Below, in pieces: positions 1,379-61,189 of a stretch of 64,000 nt of DNA. Made by a program: the position numbers and the translations under genes. Origin of the DNA: Minisyncoccota bacterium (GTDB lineage Bacteria; Patescibacteriota; Microgenomatia; UBA1400; UBA12028); NCBI GenBank assembly GCA_003487265.1, contig DNEP01000001.1, forward strand, positions 24,572-88,571, given 5' to 3'. Each line of letters begins with the position of its first letter. Positions within the stretch are counted from its first letter, which is position 1. The notes beneath the pieces are model-generated. The model worked only from the letters and a program-made list of their open reading frames with translations. It did no database searches and had not been told where the DNA came from.

Positions 1379-4300
1379 TTAGACGTTCGTTTCAGTCGAC
1401 GCGCGAATTCGCGCTATTTCTTTTTTCATATCTTGAAAAACATATGAATTACGAATGATGTAGATCAACTCGACGGGAATCTTCAATTTCAAATCGGTTA
1501 TTTCCTGAAACAGCGTGATGAGTAATGAAACTTGATCTGGTTTTTTCATTATTCGTTGAACAAAATCTTCCATCCCAACCCGAATCAGCACTCTGTTTGC
1601 TATTCTGGATTTAAGTGAAGTCGATGATACGTGAGGATTTGATTGCACGATCATCTCAATCATGTACTTCAATTCTTGTTCGCCAACAGTACCAGTCATT
1701 AATGTTTGATGTAATTCGCAATCTTGTTTTGACAAGTGAAGATATAAATCGCGATCAAGGATTGCCGTTTGTTCGGCAACATAAAAGTTTCCCTCGTGTG
1801 GATCGGAGTGATATATCACACACTCCTCTCCTTCTCGAACCACTTTATGTTTTTCAAAATCCAATTGATATTGCATAAATGATGTAATTTCCTCAAGACG
1901 ATCTGCAACAATCGCATCTTCTCCGTTTTGTATTCGTGTATTCAATGTGGAGCCTGAAAAATCTTGCGATGCGTGATATTCCGATTTCAACAAAGGTGAA
2001 TAAAAATCAATTTTTGGCACATACAGTGTTCCCTGTGGATTTTCTTGACGATATTGTTCAACAACATGCGTATACGATGTGTCATCCTCAAGAAAGTTCG
2101 AATCATATATTGTTCTCACCACGGTTTCATATGATATTTGATTGAGCATTTTGATGATCCCTAGCTCTCGTTTCCATTTTCTTTTTGACTGCTGTTCTGT
2201 AGCTTGCGTGGCAACCTCTATCGCATGTTTTGTTTCGGTTGTTATCCATTCTGCATTCGAGTTTACGAAACGAAGAACCAGTTTTGTTCCATCCATTTTT
2301 TTCGCGTTCCATACCGAGTGGATACTTCCAGCGGTAATCACATCAGAAATCTCGATTGATCGAAGATATGTATCAAGTTGTACCCTCGATTCGCGCATTT
2401 CTGGTGTATCAGTGTCTTTTGCTAAACACATGTTGTACGCATTTTCCCAAATTTGCGCCTTCACCATGCTGCGATTTTTATCCATCGAATCACGCCACTG
2501 TTTTCTATCCTCTGGTGAGAATTTCCAAAACAAGGTTGAAAATTGCGCCATACGAACAACACCCGCTCCTGCCATCTGAAGAACATCAAGTAAAGAACGA
2601 ATTTGAGATTCGTGTTTTTTTTCTTCAGTTTGCAAATACCGTTCCGATAATTTCTCTAAAATCGCCCTTCTCACACGACCAACTCGTTGCGTCGCCTCAA
2701 AAAGGTTCGATGTTGAAGATATTTTTTTATACATCGTTTTCTGTTCAGTAATATTATCTGTTCTCGAAGAAAGAATCGATTTAAAAGACTCACGTGTCCC
2801 AATGTTTTTGAACAGAGATAGGGTAACATCATCAAACTCATTCGGTGCCCCTTTTTTCTTTTCTATTGCATGAACAAAATAGTCGTAATCAACTAAAGAA
2901 GCATCATATGTTTGAAACAGTTTTTCCTTTAGAGATTGTGCAAGTGGAAATGCGAGCAGCGCTCGATCTGTATGACGTAAAATGTTTTGAAGAAACGTCA
3001 TTCCCAATTGATCCAGATTAAATAAGGAAGAGAAAATGTGAAGAATCTCATTTTTACTCAAATCTAAAATGCCGCCCTTTTCAGAAAACGATCGCAATAA
3101 AATGTAAAAACGCTCAATCGGACCTAATAGATGCAAACGTTCAATACTGTCCGCGAAACTCATAAAAAGATTTTCAAATATTGGTGCCATGACGAACTTT
3201 TTCGTTTCTGGATTATAGCGAAGATACGCATTACTTAATCGTAATTTATTTGAAACGGATTCTGTGTGAACCAGCATAAAAAACCATCGAGCGGCATTTT
3301 GTGTATTCAACCGAATCTTGTCATCAGTCGAGATTGAGCTCACCAACTCGTACGCATGGTCAATTACATGTGAAGCGAAATAATCAGCAGTCGCAACGAT
3401 CGAAGTTTTCATCGATCCATTCATTTTCTGATCCACTGCTTGACCAACATGTTTCCGCAAAAATAGATACTCATCGTAATGCTGAATTTGATCACAGAGA
3501 TATACATATCCCTCATATCCAATGGCGTCTTGTTTTACAGTATAAAAAAGTATCTTTTCACGCAATGAATCAGTTGATATCTTTAATAAATGCAGATACA
3601 TCCGTTGAATAATAAATTCAATTCTCCCCGATGCTGAGTATGGAAAGGCATTCTCCAATATACGAATTTGGTTTAAGATCAACGCTGGGTTGTCTGTGGA
3701 ATCAAATGCGTGTTCGATGTTTTTCATAAGATCGGAATATTCGAGAATCTCCATCAACTCACTTCCGAAAATCTTTTTCGACATCTTTTTCGAATAAGGC
3801 GACACCTTTCCAGATCCAAAGATTTGAAAAATAAATTGATGAAGTTGTTTCTCTTCTGAGATTCCATTATCCCTACTCAACAATACCTGAATCGGTCGTA
3901 GATTTGAAAAATCGGAATAATCCTTTTGATCTCTGTCGTACCACCCAAATACTGTTTTCGATTGAGGAAAAGAAAATTGAGTAAAATTGGTGGATAATAA
4001 TCCGACGTCATAGATTCGCATTGTACTGTCAAGAATGTTCGTTAAAAGATATAAAATGAATTCAGACGACATTGACTCCCACTCGATGTCTGCACTATTT
4101 ATTGTTTCCTCTAAGATAAGTCGGTACTCATCCGCATCTTCATTTTTTGAAAAAAGCGCACGAATAACGAATATTTTTTGTGCTAACTGAAGATATTTTG
4201 ATGAAACTTCAAGATTTGAAAACAACTCCTCAATAAACTCTTCATTCTTCGCAGAAGAAAACGGATACGTATGATATTTTTGAAAATAGTCTCGAAGAGA

Positions 4301-6355
4301 ATCACTTGAGTAGGGAGGATTAGAAAAATATCCAATAGGAAAAGAAAAGTTTTCTTGAAATTTTGCTGGCAAGTGATGAATGAATTCGATATTATAGGGC
4401 GCACGCACTATCATCGTGTCCATTTGTGCAAGCACCGATCGGACATGATCATTGATCCATGAGAGAAGATCTTGCTTCGTTGACATCTGGGGAGGGAATC
4501 TCATTTCAGATGAGAAAAGATATTCTGTTCGTTTTTGGATCTCTTCATACTGTTCAACTGATAGGACTCCCCCTTTCTGCTCTGCTGCAACCTGCAAATC
4601 AGAAAGTAAGGTAAATGACCACTCTTCAGCGACGTCTGTAAATAATTTTTTTGATGTTTCTGGCTCATCTAAACCGTTTGCGTCTATCCATGAAATGACC
4701 ATACTCGAAAAAGGATTTGAATAAAAAGAAAGGTTTTTTCGAATCGATGTCCAAGGCATCCGTTGTAACACGAGAGGATAGGTGAGAAGAAGATCTAGTG
4801 TTTCTTGAATATATTTCCTGTGTAAATCTGGAAAATACGAAAATTCAAGTCGTGATGGAAAAAACACGTTCATAAAAAGCATTTCGATTTCGTCATTCAC
4901 CCTATTTAATGTAAATGTTGGTTCTAAAGATTTTTCACTAGGTATTTGAGTTTCCAAATGAAAAAGTGCTTGCAACAACTCACATACTGTTTGTGAAGAA
5001 AGTCTTGCGTTTTGATCTCGAGAAAGAAGTATCCGCGAAGACGAAATGATCTGTAAAAAATCGGGTTTTCCCTGATTCGTTTTGTATATCTCGTTTCTTC
5101 TCTGAAAATAATCATTGGTTGGCTGGAAAATATCGGACATCTTGTTCAAATAGAACGCCCAATCTTGTCCAGTCATTTGATACAACATGCGCAATTCTTC
5201 AACGTGTCCTCGAACATAAGAACCGCCATAATCGTAAGAGTCTTTTTCCACCTCTTTTTCGAAAAACACGGTGTAGAATCGTTCATCATTTGTCATTTTT
5301 CCACGTGTTCGAGATAGCAACAACCGATAATACTCAACAACAACGCGTTCACACTGTTTTTTTTCTTGTTTCTGCTTTTCCGTTCCCGCCCACCATCTTT
5401 TCTCTCGGATTGTTTCTATTACGTCATATAAATCGCTCGGATGGAGTGTCTGCATCATTTCTATCGCTTCATCCGTTTTAAAATTACGCAACAACCAAGT
5501 GACATACTCTTTTTGTGTAGGCACCAGTGGTTCGGAAAATTCTTCTGAAATGCCGATTGTTTTCTTCATACTCGTTTCAGAATGAAGGACAAAATGTTGT
5601 CCAACCGTTTCCGTTGCGCGCATATCTGCCGTTTGATGTGAAAAATCGCGAGAACGAAGGGACACGTTTTGTAACAGGTAGGATTGACTGTCTTTAATAA
5701 ACTGTTCAAGTTTTCGAATTGCAGAAGCAAATGCAAGTGAGTTGTATCCAGCATTCTCAAGTCGATTTTTAACCAATACGTCTGCTGCAAACTCGTGAAT
5801 CCACTCGTATCCTACATTCGCCACTCCAAAAACGTTTCGCGCAAAGACATCAAGCGATAAATGATTTAATTCGTGTGCTAACACCGACGCAAACTCATCT
5901 TCAGAATGCAGTACGTGAAATAGTGAACTCGAGATCACAAGCGTCCTATCAGACATAACAAGCGCGTTGGGAATAACTCCGCGTTCCAACACAAACACGC
6001 GGACATTTTGCAATTTTGGATCATTTCCGGCAAGTTTATGAACAATATTTTCGAGCCATGTGACGCGTGAGGAATCTTGCTCAATACCATGCACCGCATC
6101 TAGTCGACCATAGACATCTGCATGTTGGCCATTGCTACAGGTGAACTGTTCCCCCCCTTCATACTCGTTTTCCCAATTGTTCCCATACATTCGCATCATG
6201 CGCTGATGCCTTTGAAAAAAAAGAAGATCGTTTTTTTCTTGATGATGTTGAACAGCAGGATGCGCGCCTTCTTTAGATGGAAACCCCTGAAGCCCTATCG
6301 CTGATTGTTCAAAAAACGCAGTTGTCATTGCATTCAGTATATCCAAGTTCGCCAC
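1379..6355 (-). CDS. Giant 1658-aa multidomain protein: N-terminal M48/M56-like zinc metalloprotease (HExxH...E) fused to a C-terminal UbiB/ABC1-type atypical kinase-like domain.
   Basis: Single uninterrupted ORF. N-terminal region contains VLAHELNHL followed by HEFAADV, the HExxH plus downstream Glu pattern of M48-like zincins. C-terminal region contains QMAGAGVVRMAQFSTLF, AGSIHSVWNAKKMDGTKLVLRFV and YHSDPHEGNFYV followed by ILDRDLYL, resembling the UbiB/ABC1 motifs HADPHPGN and (I/L)DFG. The ~1000 aa in between have no motif I recognise. Confidence 0.55.
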   Translation of the reverse strand: MANLDILNAMTTAFFEQSAIGLQGFPSKEGAHPAVQHHQEKNDLLFFQRHQRMMRMYGNNWENEYEGGEQFTCSNGQHADVYGRLDAVHGIEQDSSRVTWLENIVHKLAGNDPKLQNVRVFVLERGVIPNALVMSDRTLVISSSLFHVLHSEDEFASVLAHELNHLSLDVFARNVFGVANVGYEWIHEFAADVLVKNRLENAGYNSLAFASAIRKLEQFIKDSQSYLLQNVSLRSRDFSHQTADMRATETVGQHFVLHSETSMKKTIGISEEFSEPLVPTQKEYVTWLLRNFKTDEAIEMMQTLHPSDLYDVIETIREKRWWAGTEKQKQEKKQCERVVVEYYRLLLSRTRGKMTNDERFYTVFFEKEVEKDSYDYGGSYVRGHVEELRMLYQMTGQDWAFYLNKMSDIFQPTNDYFQRRNEIYKTNQGKPDFLQIISSSRILLSRDQNARLSSQTVCELLQALFHLETQIPSEKSLEPTFTLNRVNDEIEMLFMNVFFPSRLEFSYFPDLHRKYIQETLDLLLTYPLVLQRMPWTSIRKNLSFYSNPFSSMVISWIDANGLDEPETSKKLFTDVAEEWSFTLLSDLQVAAEQKGGVLSVEQYEEIQKRTEYLFSSEMRFPPQMSTKQDLLSWINDHVRSVLAQMDTMIVRAPYNIEFIHHLPAKFQENFSFPIGYFSNPPYSSDSLRDYFQKYHTYPFSSAKNEEFIEELFSNLEVSSKYLQLAQKIFVIRALFSKNEDADEYRLILEETINSADIEWESMSSEFILYLLTNILDSTMRIYDVGLLSTNFTQFSFPQSKTVFGWYDRDQKDYSDFSNLRPIQVLLSRDNGISEEKQLHQFIFQIFGSGKVSPYSKKMSKKIFGSELMEILEYSDLMKNIEHAFDSTDNPALILNQIRILENAFPYSASGRIEFIIQRMYLHLLKISTDSLREKILFYTVKQDAIGYEGYVYLCDQIQHYDEYLFLRKHVGQAVDQKMNGSMKTSIVATADYFASHVIDHAYELVSSISTDDKIRLNTQNAARWFFMLVHTESVSNKLRLSNAYLRYNPETKKFVMAPIFENLFMSFADSIERLHLLGPIERFYILLRSFSEKGGILDLSKNEILHIFSSLFNLDQLGMTFLQNILRHTDRALLAFPLAQSLKEKLFQTYDASLVDYDYFVHAIEKKKGAPNEFDDVTLSLFKNIGTRESFKSILSSRTDNITEQKTMYKKISSTSNLFEATQRVGRVRRAILEKLSERYLQTEEKKHESQIRSLLDVLQMAGAGVVRMAQFSTLFWKFSPEDRKQWRDSMDKNRSMVKAQIWENAYNMCLAKDTDTPEMRESRVQLDTYLRSIEISDVITAGSIHSVWNAKKMDGTKLVLRFVNSNAEWITTETKHAIEVATQATEQQSKRKWKRELGIIKMLNQISYETVVRTIYDSNFLEDDTSYTHVVEQYRQENPQGTLYVPKIDFYSPLLKSEYHASQDFSGSTLNTRIQNGEDAIVADRLEEITSFMQYQLDFEKHKVVREGEECVIYHSDPHEGNFYVAEQTAILDRDLYLHLSKQDCELHQTLMTGTVGEQELKYMIEMIVQSNPHVSSTSLKSRIANRVLIRVGMEDFVQRIMKKPDQVSLLITLFQEITDLKLKIPVELIYIIRNSYVFQDMKKEIARIRASTETNV

Positions 6356-35617: not shown

Positions 35618-36322
35618 ATGTTTCACCACGCGCTTCTGTGCATTACAGATTTTTTTCTCCACAATGAACCAAGCGTTCAATCTTCAACTGGTATTTTCTT
35701 GAATCAGATCAAGTCATATACCCCCTTTGCTGTTACAGAACATACACCAGACTTCATACATCTCTACGCCGACGAAAAAAAATCAAAAATCTCAATCGAA
35801 CAGGTACGAGAACTCATCGCATCACTTCAACAACAACCACTCAAATCGACCCATACTATTGCGTTACTTTCACAAGCGCATCTTCTTTCAATTGAGGCAC
35901 AACAAGCGCTCCTCAAAACACTCGAAGAACCACCAAAACACGCACAGATTATTCTCTGCGCACCCTCGACAACTGCCGTACTTCCAACCATCCTCTCACG
36001 ATGTTCTTACATTTTTCTTACAGACGACACAACCCAACCAACTCAACCAAACTCAGAGAATCTCGACACCCTTCCCAACACAATCACTGAAATATTGCGA
36101 TACACCGATACTTTTTCGAACACAATGGAAGGCCGCGAAAAAGCAATCACACTTCTCACGCAAATAATCAATTCAGAAAAACAAAAACTCGAGAAAACTC
36201 CAACGAAACAAAAAACAAATGAATTAAAATATCTTTTGCTTGCGCATAAACAACTGCAGGCGAATGTGCATGTGAAACTTGTGCTCGAACATCTGTGCTT
36301 TTCAATTCGTAATACAAAATAA
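35618..36322 (+). CDS. holB: DNA polymerase III delta-prime subunit-like clamp-loader protein (HolB-like), apparently lacking an intact Walker A
   Basis: ALLKTLEEPP and ILSRCSYIF clamp-loader (AAA+ sensor) motifs. Only 234 aa. Confidence 0.55.
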   Translation: MFHHALLCITDFFLHNEPSVQSSTGIFLNQIKSYTPFAVTEHTPDFIHLYADEKKSKISIEQVRELIASLQQQPLKSTHTIALLSQAHLLSIEAQQALLKTLEEPPKHAQIILCAPSTTAVLPTILSRCSYIFLTDDTTQPTQPNSENLDTLPNTITEILRYTDTFSNTMEGREKAITLLTQIINSEKQKLEKTPTKQKTNELKYLLLAHKQLQANVHVKLVLEHLCFSIRNTK

Positions 36323-36378
36323 AAACACAACTTGCAAAAACAGAAAAAATAGACTACATTGATTCCTCGTTCGTGTGA

Positions 36379-38415
<2,037 letters not shown>

Positions 38416-38426
38416 AAAGGAAGAGA

Positions 38427-38909
38427 ATGGAAACAGATCAACTTTCCCCAAGTCCTTTTGGAAACGAGCAAGGGGAGCCAGACGCATACAGAAATCAAGA
38501 TCAACCGTCCGAGGATACTACTGTAGGGGAAATAATCTATCCCATCGATGAACGTGGACAAATTGTGTGGAAAAAATCTGGAAAAGATGCTGACACTCAA
38601 CCAAGTATTTTTGATAAATATAAAGATCGCGATACAGATAAAAACAATGATCCCAAAAATGCTCCGGAAATGACGCAAGCCGTTCGAGAAGCGATTACCC
38701 CACTGATTCCTGAGGCAGAAAAGGCAGCAGAAATCGAAAGATATGTTGGACAAGCAATACTCGAAATTCGAGGTTCTAATCAATCTAAAGTACGTGGTGA
38801 ACTAGTGAAGGATGAAAAAGTACATTTATATGCGCGATTACTCATGATATCGAGGGGTCTTTCCTTACAACAAGCACTCGAATATGTCGTAGATGATATA
38901 CGCTCATAG
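38427..38909 (+). CDS. Hypothetical acidic protein (160 aa)
   Basis: ORF between gyrB and ppa. No motif recognised. Confidence 0.35.
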   Translation: METDQLSPSPFGNEQGEPDAYRNQDQPSEDTTVGEIIYPIDERGQIVWKKSGKDADTQPSIFDKYKDRDTDKNNDPKNAPEMTQAVREAITPLIPEAEKAAEIERYVGQAILEIRGSNQSKVRGELVKDEKVHLYARLLMISRGLSLQQALEYVVDDIRS

Positions 38910-38944
38910 TGTTAACACAGTATACGCAATTTATAGGAGGGCCC

Positions 38945-39583
38945 ATGTCCGACACACCAGATCTAAAAAAACTTCTCTTCTTCATCGAGATTCCCGCGGG
39001 GAGCTCGATCAAGTATGAAATCGACGAAGACACTGGCCTCCTCATGGCCGATCGCTTCCTGCATACCCAGATGACGTATCCCACAAACTACGGATTCATT
39101 ATGGGGACCGAAGGAAAAGACGGCGACCCCGTTGACGCACTTGTGCTGTCCAGCCAACCCGTCGCCCCAGGCGTCGGAATGAAAGGTCACCTTATTGGTG
39201 TGCTCGAAATGGAAGATGAAGAGGGAAGCGACAACAAAATGATCGCGGTCCCCGACAAAAAAGTCGACCCCATTTTTGGCGCGTATGAATCAATTGAAGA
39301 CGTGCCTCAACACATCAAAGACGTCATCAAACACTTTTTTGATCACTACAAAGAACTCGAAAAAGGAAAATTCGTCAAAACACACGAGTTTAAATCCAGA
39401 GAAGATGCCGAAAAAGAAGTCGCTGAATCATTTGTCGAAGGCGATGACGACTCCGAAGACGATTGTTGCTGTGGAGAATACTCTTGCGATTCCTGCAACG
39501 GCGAAAAATCATGTGAACATTGTTGCCAAGAGTGTTGCAAAAACTGCTGTGACGAAAAACACGAACACTCGGCGGGAAAATAA
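38945..39583 (+). CDS. ppa: Inorganic pyrophosphatase (family I) with an unusual C-terminal Cys-rich tail
   Basis: Family I PPase core (YPTNYGFI, GDPVDALVL, KMIAVPDKKVDP). It is followed by an extra tail, DDCCCGEYSCDSCNGEKSCEHCCQECCKNCCDEKHEHSAGK, with 13 Cys and 3 His in 41 aa. Confidence 0.8.
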   Translation: MSDTPDLKKLLFFIEIPAGSSIKYEIDEDTGLLMADRFLHTQMTYPTNYGFIMGTEGKDGDPVDALVLSSQPVAPGVGMKGHLIGVLEMEDEEGSDNKMIAVPDKKVDPIFGAYESIEDVPQHIKDVIKHFFDHYKELEKGKFVKTHEFKSREDAEKEVAESFVEGDDDSEDDCCCGEYSCDSCNGEKSCEHCCQECCKNCCDEKHEHSAGK

Positions 39584-39607
39584 TCAAAACAGTAAAAAAA
39601 GAAACAT

Positions 39608-42430
39608 ATGGCGGACGAAAACACACAACCAGTTGAAGAAATCGAAACGATCATTGAAACCGATCTTGAAAATACAGCGGAATCTGTTGTGGAATCGCCG
39701 TCCGCCAGTTCTGACACCCCAAGTCCAGTCAACCCCGCAACCCCCGTTGCCGCAGTCTCGGCTTTCATATCCAAACTCGTGAACATGAACGACCAGCGCG
39801 ACCCCGTCCAAACGGACTACGGCTTGGTCAAGCCAATGCCGATCGTGCAGGAAATGGAAAAATCCTACCTCGACTACGCGATGAGCGTGATCGTTGCCCG
39901 CGCGCTCCCAGATGTTCGCGATGGATTAAAGCCCGTACATCGCAGAATTCTGTTCGCGATGAAAGGAATGGGGCTTCACTGGAACACCGCCTATAAAAAA
40001 TCAGCGAGAATCGTCGGAGAGGTTTTGGGTAAATATCACCCGCACGGCGATACCGCGGTGTACGACGCGCTCGTTCGTTTAGCGCAAGATTTCAGCATGC
40101 GCTACCAATTGGTTGATGGGCAGGGGAACTTCGGATCGGTTGATGGTGACTCGCCAGCAGCCATGCGTTACACCGAAGCGCGCCTCACAAAAATTTCCGA
40201 GGAACTCCTCGGTGATATCGATAAAAATACCGTCGAGTTCATCGACAACTTTGACGGATCGCAACAAGAACCAACCGTTTTACCAAGCCGACTCCCGAAC
40301 TTGCTCCTCATGGGTGCAGAGGGAATCGCGGTGGGAATGGCAACAAAAATTCCACCACACAACATCACCGAAGTCGCAAATGCCATGATAGCGACGGTGC
40401 AATCATCAGCTGTTGAACTCGATGAAGAAACACTCGCGCTCACAAAAGAACCAACTCCCGATTCCATGCAAACCGCAGATTCGCAAAAACTTGCAGGCAC
40501 ACTGCAAACAAACATCACCATTCCTGAAATCTTGGAGCACATTCAAGGACCAGACTTTCCAACAGGTGGAGAGATGTTTGATTGGGCACAGATTAAAGAA
40601 GCATACGAAACGGGGAAGGGGAGAGTGGTGCTTCGGGCGGTCGCTTCGATCGAGGAAGCAAAATCAGGAAAATTTCAAATCATTATCACAGAACTGCCAT
40701 ATCAAGTTAACAAGTCGCGCCTTGTTGCAAAAATTGCGGATCTCGTTCGCGACAAAGTGCTTGTGGGAATTAGCGATCTGCGCGACGAGTCCGACCGCGA
40801 TGGACTTCGCATTATGATCGAACTCAAAAAAGACGCAAAACCAAAAGCGGTCCTCAACAACCTCTACAAACACACCGAGTTGCAATCCAGTTTCCCAATG
40901 AACATGGTTGCGCTTAATTCCGAAGGCACACCTCAACTCATGAACGTGAAAACTGTTCTTTCAGAATACCTCAAACATCGTCAGCTTGTGGTGATTCGAC
41001 GTTCACAATTTGAACTCAAATCGGCAAAAGATCGCGCGCATATCTTGGAAGGTTTGCTCATTGCCCTTTCAAATCTTGACGCCGTGATCGAAACGATTCG
41101 CAAATCACCAGACAGCGAAATTGCACGACAGCGCTTAATGGAACGCTTCAAACTCAGTGAAATTCAAGCAATCGCGATTCTCGACATGCAACTGCGAAGA
41201 CTTGCCGCGCTTGAGCGTAAAAAAATCGAAGAAGAATACAACCTCATCAAACAAACCATCGACAATCTTGTCACAATTCTTTCACAGCCACTCAAAGTGC
41301 TCGAAATTATCACGCAGGAAACGAAGAATCTCATTGAAGTCTATGGCGATGCTCGAAGAACAAAACTCCACAAAGGAAAAATCGGCGAGTTTAGCGAGGA
41401 AGATTTAATCGCAAACGACCCCATGATCGTCACCATCACCGAAACGGGATACATCAAGCGCATGAATCCCAGCACCTACCGCACACAACACCGCGGAGGC
41501 AAGGGTGTCACAGGAATGACCACAAAAGACGAAGACGCAATCATGAATATTCTGACCGCGAGCGCGCATGATTCCATGCTTATGTTCACAAACAAAGGAC
41601 GTGTGTTCAAGTTGAAGGTGCACGAACTCCCCGAGTCCAGTCGCCAAGCAAAAGGCACGAGCATTGTGAATCTTGTCAACCTTTCACCAGAAGAGCGCAT
41701 TCAATCTATCCTCACCATGGACGATAAAAAGGTTGATGCAACCGCATATATTGCACTCGCCACGCGCAAGGGATTGGTGAAGAAAACACCACTCAAGGAA
41801 TATCAGAACATTCGCACGAACGGCATCATCGCAATCATTTTGAAAGAAGGCGACGAGCTTGTGTGGGGAAAAATCACCAGTGGAACACACGATGTGATGT
41901 TAATTACGCATGATGGAAAATCTATTCGCTTCCCGGAAAGTGAGATCAAATCAACCAAGCGAGACACGCAAGGCGTAACCGCAATCGCACTCAAAAACGA
42001 TGACTATGTGGTTGGCGTTGAAGCAATTCCCACAAAAATCGAACCGTTACTCGACAAACGACGTAAACAATACCTTCATTTGCTTGTGATTACCGAAAAA
42101 GGAATGGGAAAACGCACCGAACTCACCGAGTACCCCGCGCAAAAAAGGGCAGGGCAGGGAGTGAAAGTGAGCGAGTTGTCCGACAAAACCGGCATGATCA
42201 CCAGCGCCGTCGCCGTTGATCAAACCATCGATGAAGTCATGCTTACCACAAAAGACGCACAGGTGATTAAACTTCCGTTGAAAAATATTCCTGTCTTGAA
42301 GCGACCAACACAGGGTGTGATTCTCATGCGATTCTCTTCAAAAGGAGATAAAGTTGTCGCAGTTGCGTTAACAAAGAAACCGTTAGATGATGATGAAGAA
42401 TCAGAATTCGATAGCGAAAAGAAAGAATAA
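39608..42430 (+). CDS. gyrA: DNA gyrase subunit A
   Basis: [32 protein letters not shown], the active-site Tyr region [10 protein letters not shown], and C-terminal beta-pinwheel repeats. About 60-75 aa of N-terminal extension, so the true start may be the internal Met at 39785. An insertion of about 35 aa lies before GPDFPTGG. Confidence 0.95.
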
Positions 42431-42439
42431 AGGAGGCCG

Positions 42440-43210
42440 ATGACCTGTTTTCCAAACCCAATCTCAAAGCTACTTGGTGCGGGACTCACCGTTGCGGTGT
42501 GCACCGGCGCGTTCTTTCTCGTCGCGCGCTCACTTGGTCCCATTCCCGTGTATATGAATCAGATCACCACAAATAAATATGGCACATTTGATGTGACGGG
42601 AACCTCAAGTGTGACCACCACCCCCGACAAAGCATCGTTTAGCGTCGGCGTTTCGTTCAACGAATCAACCGCAAAATCCGCGCAGGAAAAAGCGGATAAG
42701 GCGATAGCCTCAATCACAAAGGAATATCTCGATATGGGAATTGAAAAAAAAGACATTAAAACGATCAACTATTCCTTGTATCCCAACTATGATTATAGTA
42801 ATGGATCGCGAGCAACAAATGGGTATTCCGTAAACGCGACACTCCAAGTCAGCGTCACCGACTTTGCTCTTTTGAACACCGCGATCGACAAGGCGACCGC
42901 AATTGGCGCGAATCAGATCAATGCGGTCCAGTTTTCTCTTAGCGACACCAAACGGAAAGAAGTCGAGAAGGAAGCGCGCGAGTTGGCTGTTGCCGATGCA
43001 AAAGACCGCGCGGAATCTTTAGCGGGGACTGCGGGAATTCGACTAGGGAAAGTGATGAACATTATTGAAACAAACTTAAGCTTTCCACGCCCCATGTACG
43101 AGATGGCAAAAGTGATGACCGCTTCCGAAGACAGTAGTGTCCAAACGCAGGTTGAACCAGGCACAACAACCGTGAACATGAGCATTATGTTGAGTTATGA
43201 GACAAAATAG
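42440..43210 (+). CDS. SIMPL/DUF541-family periplasmic protein
   Basis: N-terminal TM anchor then the SIMPL pattern (GTFDVTGTSSVTTTPDKASFSVGV...INYSLYPNYDY...YSVNATLQVSV...AIGANQINAVQFSL...AKDRAESLAG). Confidence 0.7.
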   Translation: MTCFPNPISKLLGAGLTVAVCTGAFFLVARSLGPIPVYMNQITTNKYGTFDVTGTSSVTTTPDKASFSVGVSFNESTAKSAQEKADKAIASITKEYLDMGIEKKDIKTINYSLYPNYDYSNGSRATNGYSVNATLQVSVTDFALLNTAIDKATAIGANQINAVQFSLSDTKRKEVEKEARELAVADAKDRAESLAGTAGIRLGKVMNIIETNLSFPRPMYEMAKVMTASEDSSVQTQVEPGTTTVNMSIMLSYETK

Positions 43211-58395: not shown

Positions 58396-59526
58396 CTATA
58401 TTTTCCGATACCTCGTCGTCGCCCCTTGACCAACTCGCTCGATCACCTTGAGAGCTAAAAGTTTATTCAGTATTTGGTTTATCGTTGACCTCGGAATACC
58501 AGTTTCGGTTGAAATTTCTTTCGGCGTTGTTTCCAAAATCTTCCCCAAATACTGCCATGCAACCGACTGCTGAGGTGAAAGAATTGTTTCGATATTTGTT
58601 TGCGTGAGTAACTGTATCGCCATTTGAGACTGAGTTAGCAATATATCTAAGAAAAAGTTGAGCCATGACGATATATCAGGTTGCCCTGTTCTTAACGCTT
58701 TTTGACTTTTCCTAAGAGCTAAATAGTATTCAGGTTTATTATCCTCTATAAGTTTTTCATGAGATACATAGGGCATATAAGCGTAGTTTTGTTGTAGAAG
58801 TAATAAATTTGTTATGATTCTAGACAATCTACCATTACCATCTTCAAATGGGTGAATATTTAAAAATTCGACCAAAAAGTTTCCAATTACAAGAAGTGGA
58901 TGATAGGTGTTCTTTTGTAATGCCGTCTTCGTCCAATCAATAAGCTCAAACATTTCTTTTGGTGTTAACCAAGCTTTTGTTGTTTCAAATAAGATGCCAA
59001 CCGATTTTCCTTCCTCATTAATCATCCCAACCGCATTCTCTCTCTTTTTGTAATCACCACGATGAAAAACATCTTTTTCAACATTTTTAAGCAGTTCTTT
59101 GTGAAAATGCTTGATCAAGTTCTCGTTGAAGACAAGCGTCTGCCATGAATTAAAGACGTTTTGTAAAAGTTCATAATACCCGCGCGCTTCCTGCTCATCC
59201 CTATTGCTGAATTTTTGGATAGAAATACCTCGAAGCATTTGTTCAATATCTTCGTCAGACATTTTTGAACCTTCTATGCGAGTCGAGGAACCCGTAGAAG
59301 TGACCAGGACTGATTTTTTCAGTCGCCCAAGAATTTGAGGGCTTAGCTTCGCACTTCCCTCCCATTTCCCCTTGAATCCTTCAATCTGGGCGATCTTAAG
59401 CCAGAGGTCTTGCGGAATATTATTCAGTCTCAAATCGAATGTACTATTCATATATGTAAGATTATATAAGGTTATGTAAGATCCGTCAATATCCATCCCA
59501 TTAAACAGGTTTTTGGAAAAAACCAC
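58396..59526 (-). CDS. Fic-family protein (putative AMPylase) with a C-terminal winged-HTH
   Basis: Fic motif HPFEDGNGRLSRI. The C-terminal ...TGIPRSTINQILNKLLALKVIERVGQGATTRY is a wHTH. The gene is clearly AT-rich relative to neighbours and starts 34 nt from the tRNA-Leu 3' end. Confidence 0.8.
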   Translation of the reverse strand: MVFSKNLFNGMDIDGSYITLYNLTYMNSTFDLRLNNIPQDLWLKIAQIEGFKGKWEGSAKLSPQILGRLKKSVLVTSTGSSTRIEGSKMSDEDIEQMLRGISIQKFSNRDEQEARGYYELLQNVFNSWQTLVFNENLIKHFHKELLKNVEKDVFHRGDYKKRENAVGMINEEGKSVGILFETTKAWLTPKEMFELIDWTKTALQKNTYHPLLVIGNFLVEFLNIHPFEDGNGRLSRIITNLLLLQQNYAYMPYVSHEKLIEDNKPEYYLALRKSQKALRTGQPDISSWLNFFLDILLTQSQMAIQLLTQTNIETILSPQQSVAWQYLGKILETTPKEISTETGIPRSTINQILNKLLALKVIERVGQGATTRYRKI

Positions 59527-59881: not shown

Positions 59882-61189
59882 CTAGCGCTTCTGTTCCATG
59901 CCATAAAACTTGATACGATCTCCGCGGAAATACAAGTCAATCGTGCGCAACGGACCGTTTCTGTGCTTTGAAAGGTTGAGCTTCACATGCTCCTGCGCCT
60001 CGTCTTCCTCACGGTACAAGAACATGACAACGTCGGAATCTTGCTCGATCGATCCACTTTCACGAAGATCGGACAGTTGAGGTTGCTTTGTTCCTCGACT
60101 TTCAACCGCACGATTCAACTGCGAAAGCGCCAAAACGGGGACCTTTAATTCGCGCGCCAAGTTTTTCAAACCTTGAGAGATCTCCGAAACTTCTTGCACA
60201 CGATTGTCTGTGGTGTACCCACGCATCAACTGCAAATAATCGACAACAATCAAATCAAGACCGTGCTCCGCCATCAACCGACGCGCTTTTGTTCGCACTT
60301 CAAGGATTGACTGTCCGGGAGTGTCATCAAAAAACAACGGGGCCTCGGCTAAAATACCCATTGCTTCGCTGAGTTTGTCGAAATCTTCGTCGGTCAACTT
60401 TCCCGTTTTCAATCGCCATGCATCAATATCCGCCTGACTCACCAATAAACGGTCAACCATCTCTTCCTTGCTCATTTCCAGCGCGAAATATCCAACCACT
60501 TTATGCTCCACAACCGCCACGTGTTGCGCGATTGCCAGAGCAAATGCGGTTTTCCCGATACCGGGGCGCGCGGCGAGAATTAAAAGGTTTGATTTCTGCA
60601 TTCCCGCAAGCGTGTTGTCCAGATCAGCAAATCCCGTCGCGACACCACGCAACGATCCGCTGTTTTTTTGAAGCTCGTCCAAACGATCAAAACTTTCTGC
60701 GAGTGTTTTTTTTAGTGGAACAAAGCTTCGTTCGAGGTGTTTTTGAGAAATACTGAAGATTTTTTGTTCGGCGGTGTCCAACACAGTCGAGGTTTCAATT
60801 TGTTCGCTAAACGAAAGTTCGGAAAGTTCGCCCGCCAATGCAATCAACGCGCGTTTGATCGCGTGATTCTTGATGATCTTGGCGTATTCTTCAACATGCG
60901 CACTTGTTGGAACGCGTGTCGCGAGCTCGGCTAAGCGCGCAGATCCTCCGATTTTTTTGAACGATCCGAGTTTTTTCAACCCATTTGTGACCGTCACAAT
61001 ATCGATCGGACTCAAGTCCTTGTACAACTCAATCATCGCAAGATAAATCTGGGAGTTTCGCTCATCGTAGAAATGTTGTGGCTCAAGAACCTCTGCAACG
61101 CGCACAAGTGCCTCGTGATCGATGAGCAACGCGCCAAGAACGCTTTCTTCAGCTTCTAGATTGTGCGGTGGGATTTTCATGTCTGGCAT
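59882..61189 (-). CDS. dnaB: Replicative DNA helicase DnaB
   Basis: N-terminal PHNLEAEESVLGALL, Walker A PGIGKTAFALAIAQ, the RecA-like H2/H3/H4 motifs (LIVVDYLQLM, LSQLNRAVESR) and SGSIEQDSDVVMFLYR. Confidence 0.9.
   Translation of the reverse strand: MPDMKIPPHNLEAEESVLGALLIDHEALVRVAEVLEPQHFYDERNSQIYLAMIELYKDLSPIDIVTVTNGLKKLGSFKKIGGSARLAELATRVPTSAHVEEYAKIIKNHAIKRALIALAGELSELSFSEQIETSTVLDTAEQKIFSISQKHLERSFVPLKKTLAESFDRLDELQKNSGSLRGVATGFADLDNTLAGMQKSNLLILAARPGIGKTAFALAIAQHVAVVEHKVVGYFALEMSKEEMVDRLLVSQADIDAWRLKTGKLTDEDFDKLSEAMGILAEAPLFFDDTPGQSILEVRTKARRLMAEHGLDLIVVDYLQLMRGYTTDNRVQEVSEISQGLKNLARELKVPVLALSQLNRAVESRGTKQPQLSDLRESGSIEQDSDVVMFLYREEDEAQEHVKLNLSKHRNGPLRTIDLYFRGDRIKFYGMEQKR

Follow-up and report, generated by a model that had tools for sequence, protein, structure and literature searches.

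Can a soluble pyrophosphatase (PPase) double as a metal-binding protein by means of a metallothionein-like tail? This question is raised by the ppa gene found at positions 38945–39583 (+) of the window analyzed here, i.e., the whole stretch of 64,000 nucleotides of genomic DNA. From its ATG start to its TAA stop, which is included in these coordinates, the gene encodes a family I inorganic PPase of 212 amino acids (aa) that ends in a Cys-rich tail. Soluble PPases are among the best-studied enzymes. Full-text searches of the literature gave no description of Cys-rich tails of soluble PPases or of metallothioneins of the CPR bacteria, while a 2024 review of microbial PPases has no occurrence of the word "cysteine" and discusses C-terminal extensions only for membrane PPases. 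A Cys-rich tail on a family I PPase is therefore new with respect to the accessible literature, in which it would stand as a de novo metallothionein-like tail on a known enzyme.

The Pyrophosphatase Core

The ppa start codon is preceded by a Shine-Dalgarno-like AGGAGG (38935–38940, +), which was read from the sequence and lies 4 nt 5′ of the ATG. The first 164 residues of the ppa product (38945–39436, +) make up a Cys-free catalytic core that carries the equivalents of known active-site residues. The Pfam family PF00719 (Pyrophosphatase) matched aa 13–162 with an E-value of 3.2e-51 and a score of 173.6 bits (cut-off 23.5), and this match spanned profile positions 2–148 of 153. BLASTP alignment to E. 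coli Ppa showed 46% identity across aa 10–163. The active-site residues of the E. coli enzyme, which we take to be E20, K29, E31, R43, Y51, Y55, D65, D67, D70, D97, D102, K104, Y141, and K142, all have equivalents in this alignment (14 of 14; i.e., E15, K23, E25, R37, Y45, Y49, D59, D61, D64, D91, D96, K98, Y135, and K136 of the window PPase). Thirteen of these equivalents were invariant in an alignment of 62 sequences, and Y45 was nearly so (at least 90%).

The AF2 model had pLDDT values above 90 in the core and below 50 from residue 167 on. When compared to the PDB with Foldseek, the modeled core matched solved PPases with target-normalized TM-scores of 0.85–0.89 and E-values of about 1e-17 to 1e-18, in agreement with the OB-like beta-barrel and two helices of family I PPases. 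The claim of the first-pass annotation that the family I core is complete is thus well founded, given that all active-site equivalents are there and that the modeled core resembles solved PPases so closely. In fold and in aligned active-site residues, the core of the window protein is like those of the family I soluble PPases (PF00719), such as E. coli Ppa and S. acidocaldarius 1QEZ. The window protein differs from these PPases in an extra 48-residue extension that is acidic and rich in Cys, whereas the solved relatives and the tail-less homologues stop at most about 34 residues past the HYK motif. Consistently, none of the 43 solved PPases matched by phmmer had an extension beyond the core. 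Judged from its sequence, the ppa product is an active-looking, cytoplasmic family I PPase that is predicted to be Mg2+-dependent. Bacterial PPases of family I are homohexamers.

The Cys-Rich Tail of the Window Protein

The last 41 aa of the window PPase are DDCCCGEYSCDSCNGEKSCEHCCQECCKNCCDEKHEHSAGK. This is exactly the sequence quoted in the first-pass annotation, which had also counted its 3 His correctly but had given 13 Cys; our recount gave 12. No Cys is present in residues 1–171, and all 12 Cys of the protein sit in the tail. As read from the sequence, the core is followed by an acidic linker, EGDDDSEDD (aa 165–173; 39437–39463, +), most of which belongs to the low-confidence part of the AF2 model. 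Next comes the Cys-rich segment CCCGEYSCDSCNGEKSCEHCCQECCKNCC (aa 174–202; 39464–39550, +), in which the 12 Cys form a CCC run, a CxxC motif, and three CC pairs. The protein ends in DEKHEHSAGK (aa 203–212; 39551–39580, +), which includes an HxH motif and a C-terminal Lys. Cys accounts for 12 of the 41 tail residues (29%) and Tyr for a single one, and tail and linker together are strongly acidic (calculated pI of the tail, 4.26).

With the Cys frequency of the window (1.1%), a stretch of 41 aa would contain 12 or more Cys with a probability of 1.8e-14 per position and of about 3e-10 across the long open reading frames (ORFs) of the window. No comparable segment was found in the other plausible ORFs of the window or in 0.93 Mb of related loci, and the tail is confined to the PPase.

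Integrity of the Reading Frame

Contigs encoding the identical 212-aa protein numbered at least 24 (30 index blocks), and 14 of them belonged to the 50–200 kb class. They stem from different samples (JGI, ENA, and Logan assemblies), and the same neighbor genes were found in all of them. The first-pass annotation had noted that the tail could be the product of a sequencing or assembly frameshift or of read-through, or that it could be limited to this genome with a stop codon in the relatives. The former is contradicted by the occurrence of the exact protein in several samples (at least 24 contigs), and the latter by tails in 49 + 34 homologue clusters. A frameshift origin was also considered because the +1 frame is open over the tail (ORF 39276–39782), and it was rejected because only frame 0 is conserved among the homologues. 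Tandem Repeats Finder detected no repeat in the tail DNA, so simple slippage does not explain the tail of the window protein. The tail is real, and its reading as an artefact is already refuted. Two alternative-frame ORFs run over the tail into gyrA, one of 168 aa at 39276–39782 (+) and one of 146 aa at 39346–39786 (−). Both result from the GAx/TGy/AAa codon composition as low-complexity by-products and are not conserved genes.

A variant of 150 aa, P0003, matches the window PPase at 100% identity over 142 codons and then diverges. It was found on two short, low-coverage contigs (L090 and L091) that share 662–731 nt with the window at 100% identity. The shared block, which covers the end of the 160-aa ORF upstream of ppa and ppa codons 1–142, corresponds to window positions 38640–39370, L090 positions 2765–3426, and L091 positions 1–731. 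Both contigs leave the shared sequence within an A-run, at window position 39370, and continue as unrelated DNA encoding a membrane protein; L090 also breaks on the upstream side of the shared block. P0003 was considered as a tail-less allele and rejected as such, given that short low-coverage contigs with junctions into unrelated DNA indicate an anomalous copy. The window copy is the intact one because its sequence past the junction at 39370 is homologous to other PPases. P0003 either arose through chimeric assembly or represents a genuine recombinant or mobile copy.

Distribution of the Tail Among CPR Pyrophosphatases

PPases were considered tail-bearing when at least 3 Cys followed the HFFxHYK motif, and the set of 50 tail-bearing PPases consisted of 49 database clusters plus the window protein. 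A search of homologous PPases for the tail, which the first-pass annotation had proposed, revealed tails of the same composition in 49 of the 58 nearest homologues. In the first homologue search, essentially all matches above about 60% identity carried the tail, whereas more distant PPases ended at about 161–166 aa and had no Cys. The length past HFFxHYK varied from 14 to 34 aa in tail-less homologues (median 31) and from 40 to 96 aa in tail-bearing ones (median 62), which agrees with the earlier claim that canonical PPases lack such an extension. The close homologues were from bacteria named as Candidatus Pacebacteria, Woesebacteria, and "Saccharimonadia" (CPR/Patescibacteria), and the database annotation of the homologues is plain "inorganic diphosphatase."

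In a neighbor-joining tree of the cores, the 50 tail-bearing PPases formed one clade with six tail-less members scattered inside it. From their placement in this tree, the six look like secondary losses. A second clade of CPR PPases was reached via locus L069 and is about 53% identical to the window protein; 34 of its 119 top matches had Cys-rich tails, often with His at the end. The tail is thus conserved in two CPR clades, and therefore the trait is either ancient with many losses or was gained more than once. A scan of GTDB genomes, which mostly yielded distant PPases, identified tails in 2 of 80 loci among those listed. No decayed tail and no separate Cys-rich ORF was found downstream of tail-less ppa genes.

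Composition of the Tails and Selection on Their Cysteines

When the 50 tails were pooled, Cys made up 25% of the residues, Glu 17%, Gly 13%, Lys 13%, and Asp 12%, while Phe, Trp, Leu, Ile, and Tyr were close to 0. The number of Cys per tail varied from 3 to 16 (median 9, n = 50). The motif CxC was present in 46 of the 50 tails, and CC and CxxC were each present in 37. A C-terminal Lys was found in 44 of the 50 tails, and 18 had a poly-Lys end with at least 3 Lys within the last 8 residues. At least 3 His followed the HYK motif in 17 of the 50, at least 2 His were among the final 12 residues in 14, and many tails had His-rich ends of the HxHxH type. In 48 of the 50 tail-bearing proteins the core was free of Cys.

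Within subfamilies the Cys patterns are fixed, such as CxCxCxxCEGxxCxCDxxGCCCxGxCxCK and CDCDCKGGEDCKCxxxxCxCCGECGCK. Pairwise comparisons within subfamilies showed that 630 of 717 Cys sites were conserved (88%, a value that is inflated in gappy groups since alignment programs favor Cys-Cys columns), compared to 49% of the other tail sites and 86% of core sites. In the near-gapless groups A, B, C, F, and G, Cys conservation was still 88–100%. In the pairs P0043/P0044 and P0032/P0038, all 21 Cys were kept, although 13 of the 21 codons had switched between TGT and TGC and 23 of the 43 other tail residues had been replaced. The Cys positions are under selection. Because Cys is kept while Cys codons and other tail residues change, these comparisons show purifying selection on the tail thiols themselves.

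Gene Neighborhood

The ppa gene lies between gyrB (36436–38415, +; Pfam DNA_gyraseB, Toprim, and HATPase_c), the upstream member of the gyrB-ppa-gyrA cluster, and gyrA (39608–42430, +; Pfam DNA_topoisoIV and DNA_gyraseA_C), which starts 24 nt after the ppa stop. An ORF of 160 aa (38427–38909, +), which is acidic (calculated pI 4.67) and has no Pfam match, is found between gyrB and ppa. The first-pass annotation had described this order and the acidity of the 160-aa product, and both descriptions hold. The four genes run in one direction and are separated by 11, 35, and 24 nt, and no terminator-like site was found between gyrB and gyrA on the + strand. Given these short gaps, the shared direction, and the result for terminators, gyrB, the 160-aa ORF, ppa, and gyrA are presumably co-transcribed.

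The same annotation had regarded this context as odd, with ppa inserted between the gyrase genes, a view that the comparison with other genomes overturns. The order gyrB-ppa-gyrA (within 35618–43210 of the window) was identified by tblastn in about 30 CPR loci of the genome collection (e.g., L007–L010, L022, L037, L053, L087–L089, and L092), with or without a PPase tail. The gene holB was often found upstream in these loci, and genes for SIMPL-domain and integrase-family (XerC/D-like) proteins were sometimes found downstream. The order was also present in all 4 close relatives examined and in one tail-less member of the clade. Most of these relatives' loci had holB together with a type IV pilus cluster on the upstream side, and SIMPL-domain and integrase-family (XerC/D-like) genes on the downstream side. 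In the scan of the genome collection, none of the archaeal or other non-CPR loci fetched had this order. By this distribution, gyrB-ppa-gyrA is a deep synteny of the whole clade and has no relation to the tail, and ppa is not a recent insertion, since the order is kept in about 30 CPR loci that include tail-less PPases.

Only the small ORFs flanking ppa vary, and those of the relatives are unrelated to the 160-aa ORF and to each other. Apart from a C-terminal match in L090, tblastn detected no homologue of the 160-aa ORF in any other locus fetched. By these comparisons the 160-aa ORF is lineage-specific filler, and it is the only such part of the context. In L090, the last ~66 aa of the 160-aa ORF (window 38709–38909) recur unchanged at the C-terminus of a 557-aa ORF (1292–2965) with no Pfam match on record. 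This 557-aa gene may have left the 160-aa ORF as a remnant, or the two may share a domain.

Some further features of these loci were observed. On L086, the Candidatus Pacebacteria contig that encodes the closest named homologue (P0002), gyrB carries an intein (PF14890; 1–2050). The gyrA region of this contig (3172–7053) has ~3.9 kb without a called gene, followed by a short GyrA C-terminal fragment, and this gyrA may also be intein-bearing or disrupted. In the window, a 1658-aa ORF at 1379–6355 (−) has a short Peptidase_M48 segment (aa 97–177) as its only Pfam match. A 376-aa protein encoded at 58396–59526 (−) combines Fic/DOC with a C-terminal winged helix of the MarR/TrmB type, and its gene adjoins dnaB (59882–61189).

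Searches for Relatives of the Tail and for Helper Genes

When five tails were compared to Pfam with hmmscan (E ≤ 10), no family was matched, whether of metallothioneins (such as SmtA/BmtA), of Fe-S proteins, or of any other kind. The tail alone (50 aa) had 0 matches at E ≤ 1e-3 among 1.84 billion representative proteins, and a 42-aa profile built from 11 well-aligned tails yielded 967 word candidates, none at E ≤ 1. The tail thus does not behave as a detectable homologous domain, which limits what these searches can say about fusions to proteins other than PPase. The DNA pattern for CxCKGGxxC had 5 matches in JGI metagenome contigs, with 0 PPases among them and none convincing. Through this pattern, short Cys-rich open frames with the sequence VPDVNCCWSGC(E/D/N)CGCDCKGGDDC... 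were observed on three JGI contigs (L095, 360–386; L098, 1051–1077; L099, 1572–1598) and are unrelated to PPase.

No radical SAM, thioredoxin, metal-transport, or metal-homeostasis genes were found within ±10 kb of ppa or among the 30 other window ORFs scanned. A Cys-rich precursor of the SCIFF/ranthipeptide type was considered and rejected, given that the tail is part of an enzyme and that no radical SAM family was found in these regions.

Proposed Function of the Tail

In our best overall reading, which the sequence evidence leads us to rate at a probability of roughly 0.5, the tail is a metallothionein-like extension that would buffer or sequester metal and would also protect the Mg-dependent active site. 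Each PPase subunit ends in about 45 flexible, acidic residues that include 12 Cys thiolates, 3 His, and many Asp and Glu. The tail would be disordered when metal-free and would wrap soft metal ions into metal-thiolate clusters in the manner of metallothioneins. Zn2+, Cu+, or Cd2+ would be the likely metals and Ni, Co, Fe2+, and As(III) further candidates. Six such tails would be displayed per hexameric particle, and an abundant, constitutively expressed enzyme would double as a thiol-based metal buffer or store of the cell. The tail would in addition shield the Mg2+-dependent active site from thiophilic metals.

This reading follows from the many conserved thiols, their CxC, CC, and CxxC spacing, the frequent HxH ends, the hydrophilic disordered chain, and the rapid change of all but the Cys. 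The unstructured tail of the AF2 model is what would be expected of an apo-metallothionein, low AF2 confidence being no specific evidence. The metal-storing Cys/His tails of H. pylori HspA and of SlyD, which are compared below, set a precedent among housekeeping proteins. Against the reading, the tail is dispensable, as its range from 3 to 16 Cys and the six tail-less lineages inside the clade imply, and it has no similarity to any metallothionein or other Pfam family at E ≤ 10, nor were metal-homeostasis genes found in the scanned window ORFs or within ±10 kb. The abundant Asp and Glu of the tail would be compatible with hard cations as well, or with a role as an autoinhibitory acidic plug. 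The proposal of a metal-binding module in the first-pass annotation stands as the best reading because of the composition and the selection on Cys positions; the binding itself is what we infer. That the tail binds metal is probable, and the odds are somewhat better than for the reading as a whole. The physiological role proposed here is put forward tentatively, at rather less than even odds.

Four other explanations were weighed against this reading. Disulfide formation or metal loading could switch PPase activity by means of a redox- or metal-gated tail that folds onto the basic pyrophosphate-binding site or alters hexamer assembly. Acidic, Cys-containing C-terminal extensions regulate some chloroplast enzymes. 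The strong acidity of the tail and linker, a disordered chain long and flexible enough to reach the active site, the conserved Cys, and the existence of short versions with 3–5 Cys, which would be poor metal stores, are all consistent with such a switch. A switch, however, needs two to four Cys, while the tails have a median of 9 and up to 16. Their number and spacing vary freely between subfamilies although the core is fixed, many tails end in poly-Lys rather than in acidic residues, and no thioredoxin-type partner gene is nearby, which together make gating unlikely. Less likely again is the ligation of [2Fe-2S] or [4Fe-4S] clusters by single tails or by tails shared between hexamer subunits, with the PPase acting as an iron/redox sensor or cluster carrier. 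The many conserved Cys, the groundwater samples from which these organisms come, and their probably anaerobic life would suit it, as would a precedent in a different pyrophosphatase, Asp1 of S. pombe, which is reported to host a [2Fe-2S] cluster (PMC8038993). The tails lack the ferredoxin-type CxxCxxCxxxCP spacing, though, and are dominated by CxC and CC, which are typical of metal-thiolate clusters. A disordered hydrophilic chain with a variable number of Cys would also offer no protected pocket, and no Fe-S Pfam family was matched.

The tail might instead serve in localization or tethering, with acylated Cys and/or a polybasic end (KKKGKK in many homologues) binding to membrane, nucleic acid, or a partner such as gyrase. 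The frequency of C-terminal Lys (44 of 50) and of Lys-rich ends (18 of 50) and the location of ppa in a gyrB-gyrA cluster speak for this explanation. It is very unlikely, given that the tail of the window protein has no polybasic end and that the synteny with gyrase is equally present with tail-less PPases. To our knowledge, moreover, there is no established mechanism for S-acylation of cytoplasmic bacterial proteins. An artefact of frameshift or read-through, or neutral junk in the form of a functionless low-complexity expansion, has the smallest probability of all and is hardly credible. The fast evolution of tail length and sequence, the lack of a tail in some lineages, and the 150-aa variant P0003 without a tail could be cited in its favor. 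They are outweighed by an identical ORF in at least 24 assemblies, tails in 83 other homologue clusters, the retention of Cys despite synonymous codon turnover, the lack of a tandem DNA repeat under the tail, and the anomalous nature of P0003, which is known from two short low-coverage contigs joined to unrelated DNA.

Comparison with Known Metal-Binding Proteins

Metallothioneins have a high Cys content, CxC, CC, and CxxC motifs, Lys rather than Arg, and few aromatic or aliphatic residues, and they are disordered without metal. Both the tail of the window protein and the set of 50 tails have this composition of high Cys, CxC/CC/CxxC motifs, and few hydrophobic residues. With 25–29% Cys, Lys but not Arg, and near-zero aromatic and aliphatic residues, they are like the eukaryotic metallothioneins, the bacterial SmtA/BmtA, and the mycobacterial MymT. 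They are unlike metallothioneins in that the tail is the in-frame C-terminus of a 212-aa enzyme rather than a small free-standing protein. They also differ from classical metallothioneins in a much higher content of Asp and Glu and in having no match to a metallothionein Pfam family at E ≤ 10.

A further comparison is with SlyD, a PPIase/chaperone that acts as a monomer and whose tail has a role in hydrogenase maturation. Like the PPase tail, the C-terminus of SlyD is a disordered extension rich in His, Cys, and acidic residues, and it likewise sits on a housekeeping enzyme of the cytosol. Cys is far more abundant in the PPase tail, and the two tails are not homologous. The SlyD tail binds Ni2+ and Zn2+ (PMC3292732). 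Similarly, the C-terminal extension of the H. pylori GroES homologue HspA binds two Ni per monomer and functions in storage and detoxification (PMC5116745). Domain B of HspA and the PPase tail are both lineage-specific C-terminal extensions of roughly 27–45 residues, rich in metal-ligand residues, on an essential oligomeric housekeeping protein. The HspA tail is dominated by His (8 His and 4 Cys), whereas the PPase tail is dominated by Cys (12 Cys and 3 His). The two tails share no sequence homology and belong to different host proteins in different phyla, and metal binding by the PPase tail is a prediction. As a disordered, lineage-specific, ligand-rich extension, the PPase tail would be a functional analogue only of the HspA and SlyD tails, the closest such cases on record.

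Another published parallel is the thioredoxin-metallothionein chimera "TrxA" of Runella aurantiaca (2026), for which metal binding and tolerance were shown in E. coli (PMC13578184). In this protein, as in the PPase, a bacterial housekeeping enzyme is followed by a C-terminal Cys-rich metal-binding region, which in the PPase is a predicted one. The Cys-rich domain of the chimera is 98% identical to Synechococcus SmtA and its thioredoxin part is 96% identical to enterobacterial TrxA; this single sequence could be a construct-like fusion, and the chimera is an object of another kind. In contrast, the PPase tail is de novo and family-wide, in 80+ clusters.

Implications

If the proposed function is correct, the conserved and selected metallothionein-like tail on >80 clusters of CPR PPases would be a new accessory module of the PPase family and a rare bacterial fusion of an enzyme with a metallothionein. 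Short Cys-rich tails such as CDCDCKGGEDCKCxxxCxCCGECGCK could also serve as compact metal-binding tags. A more far-reaching scenario, which we consider doubtful as a whole, is that the Microgenomates/Pacebacteria-type CPR have made their PPase hexamer into a metallothionein particle tethered to an enzyme, whose six tails would provide tens of thiolates, and that at least two PPase clades acquired or retained this trait. Such a particle would be the main cytoplasmic buffer for Zn, Cu, Cd, or As in ultra-small cells without classical metal-homeostasis genes, and it would possibly couple PPase activity to the metal or redox state. The tail, if it functions as proposed, would thus be a clue to metal handling in genome-reduced, ultra-small cells.
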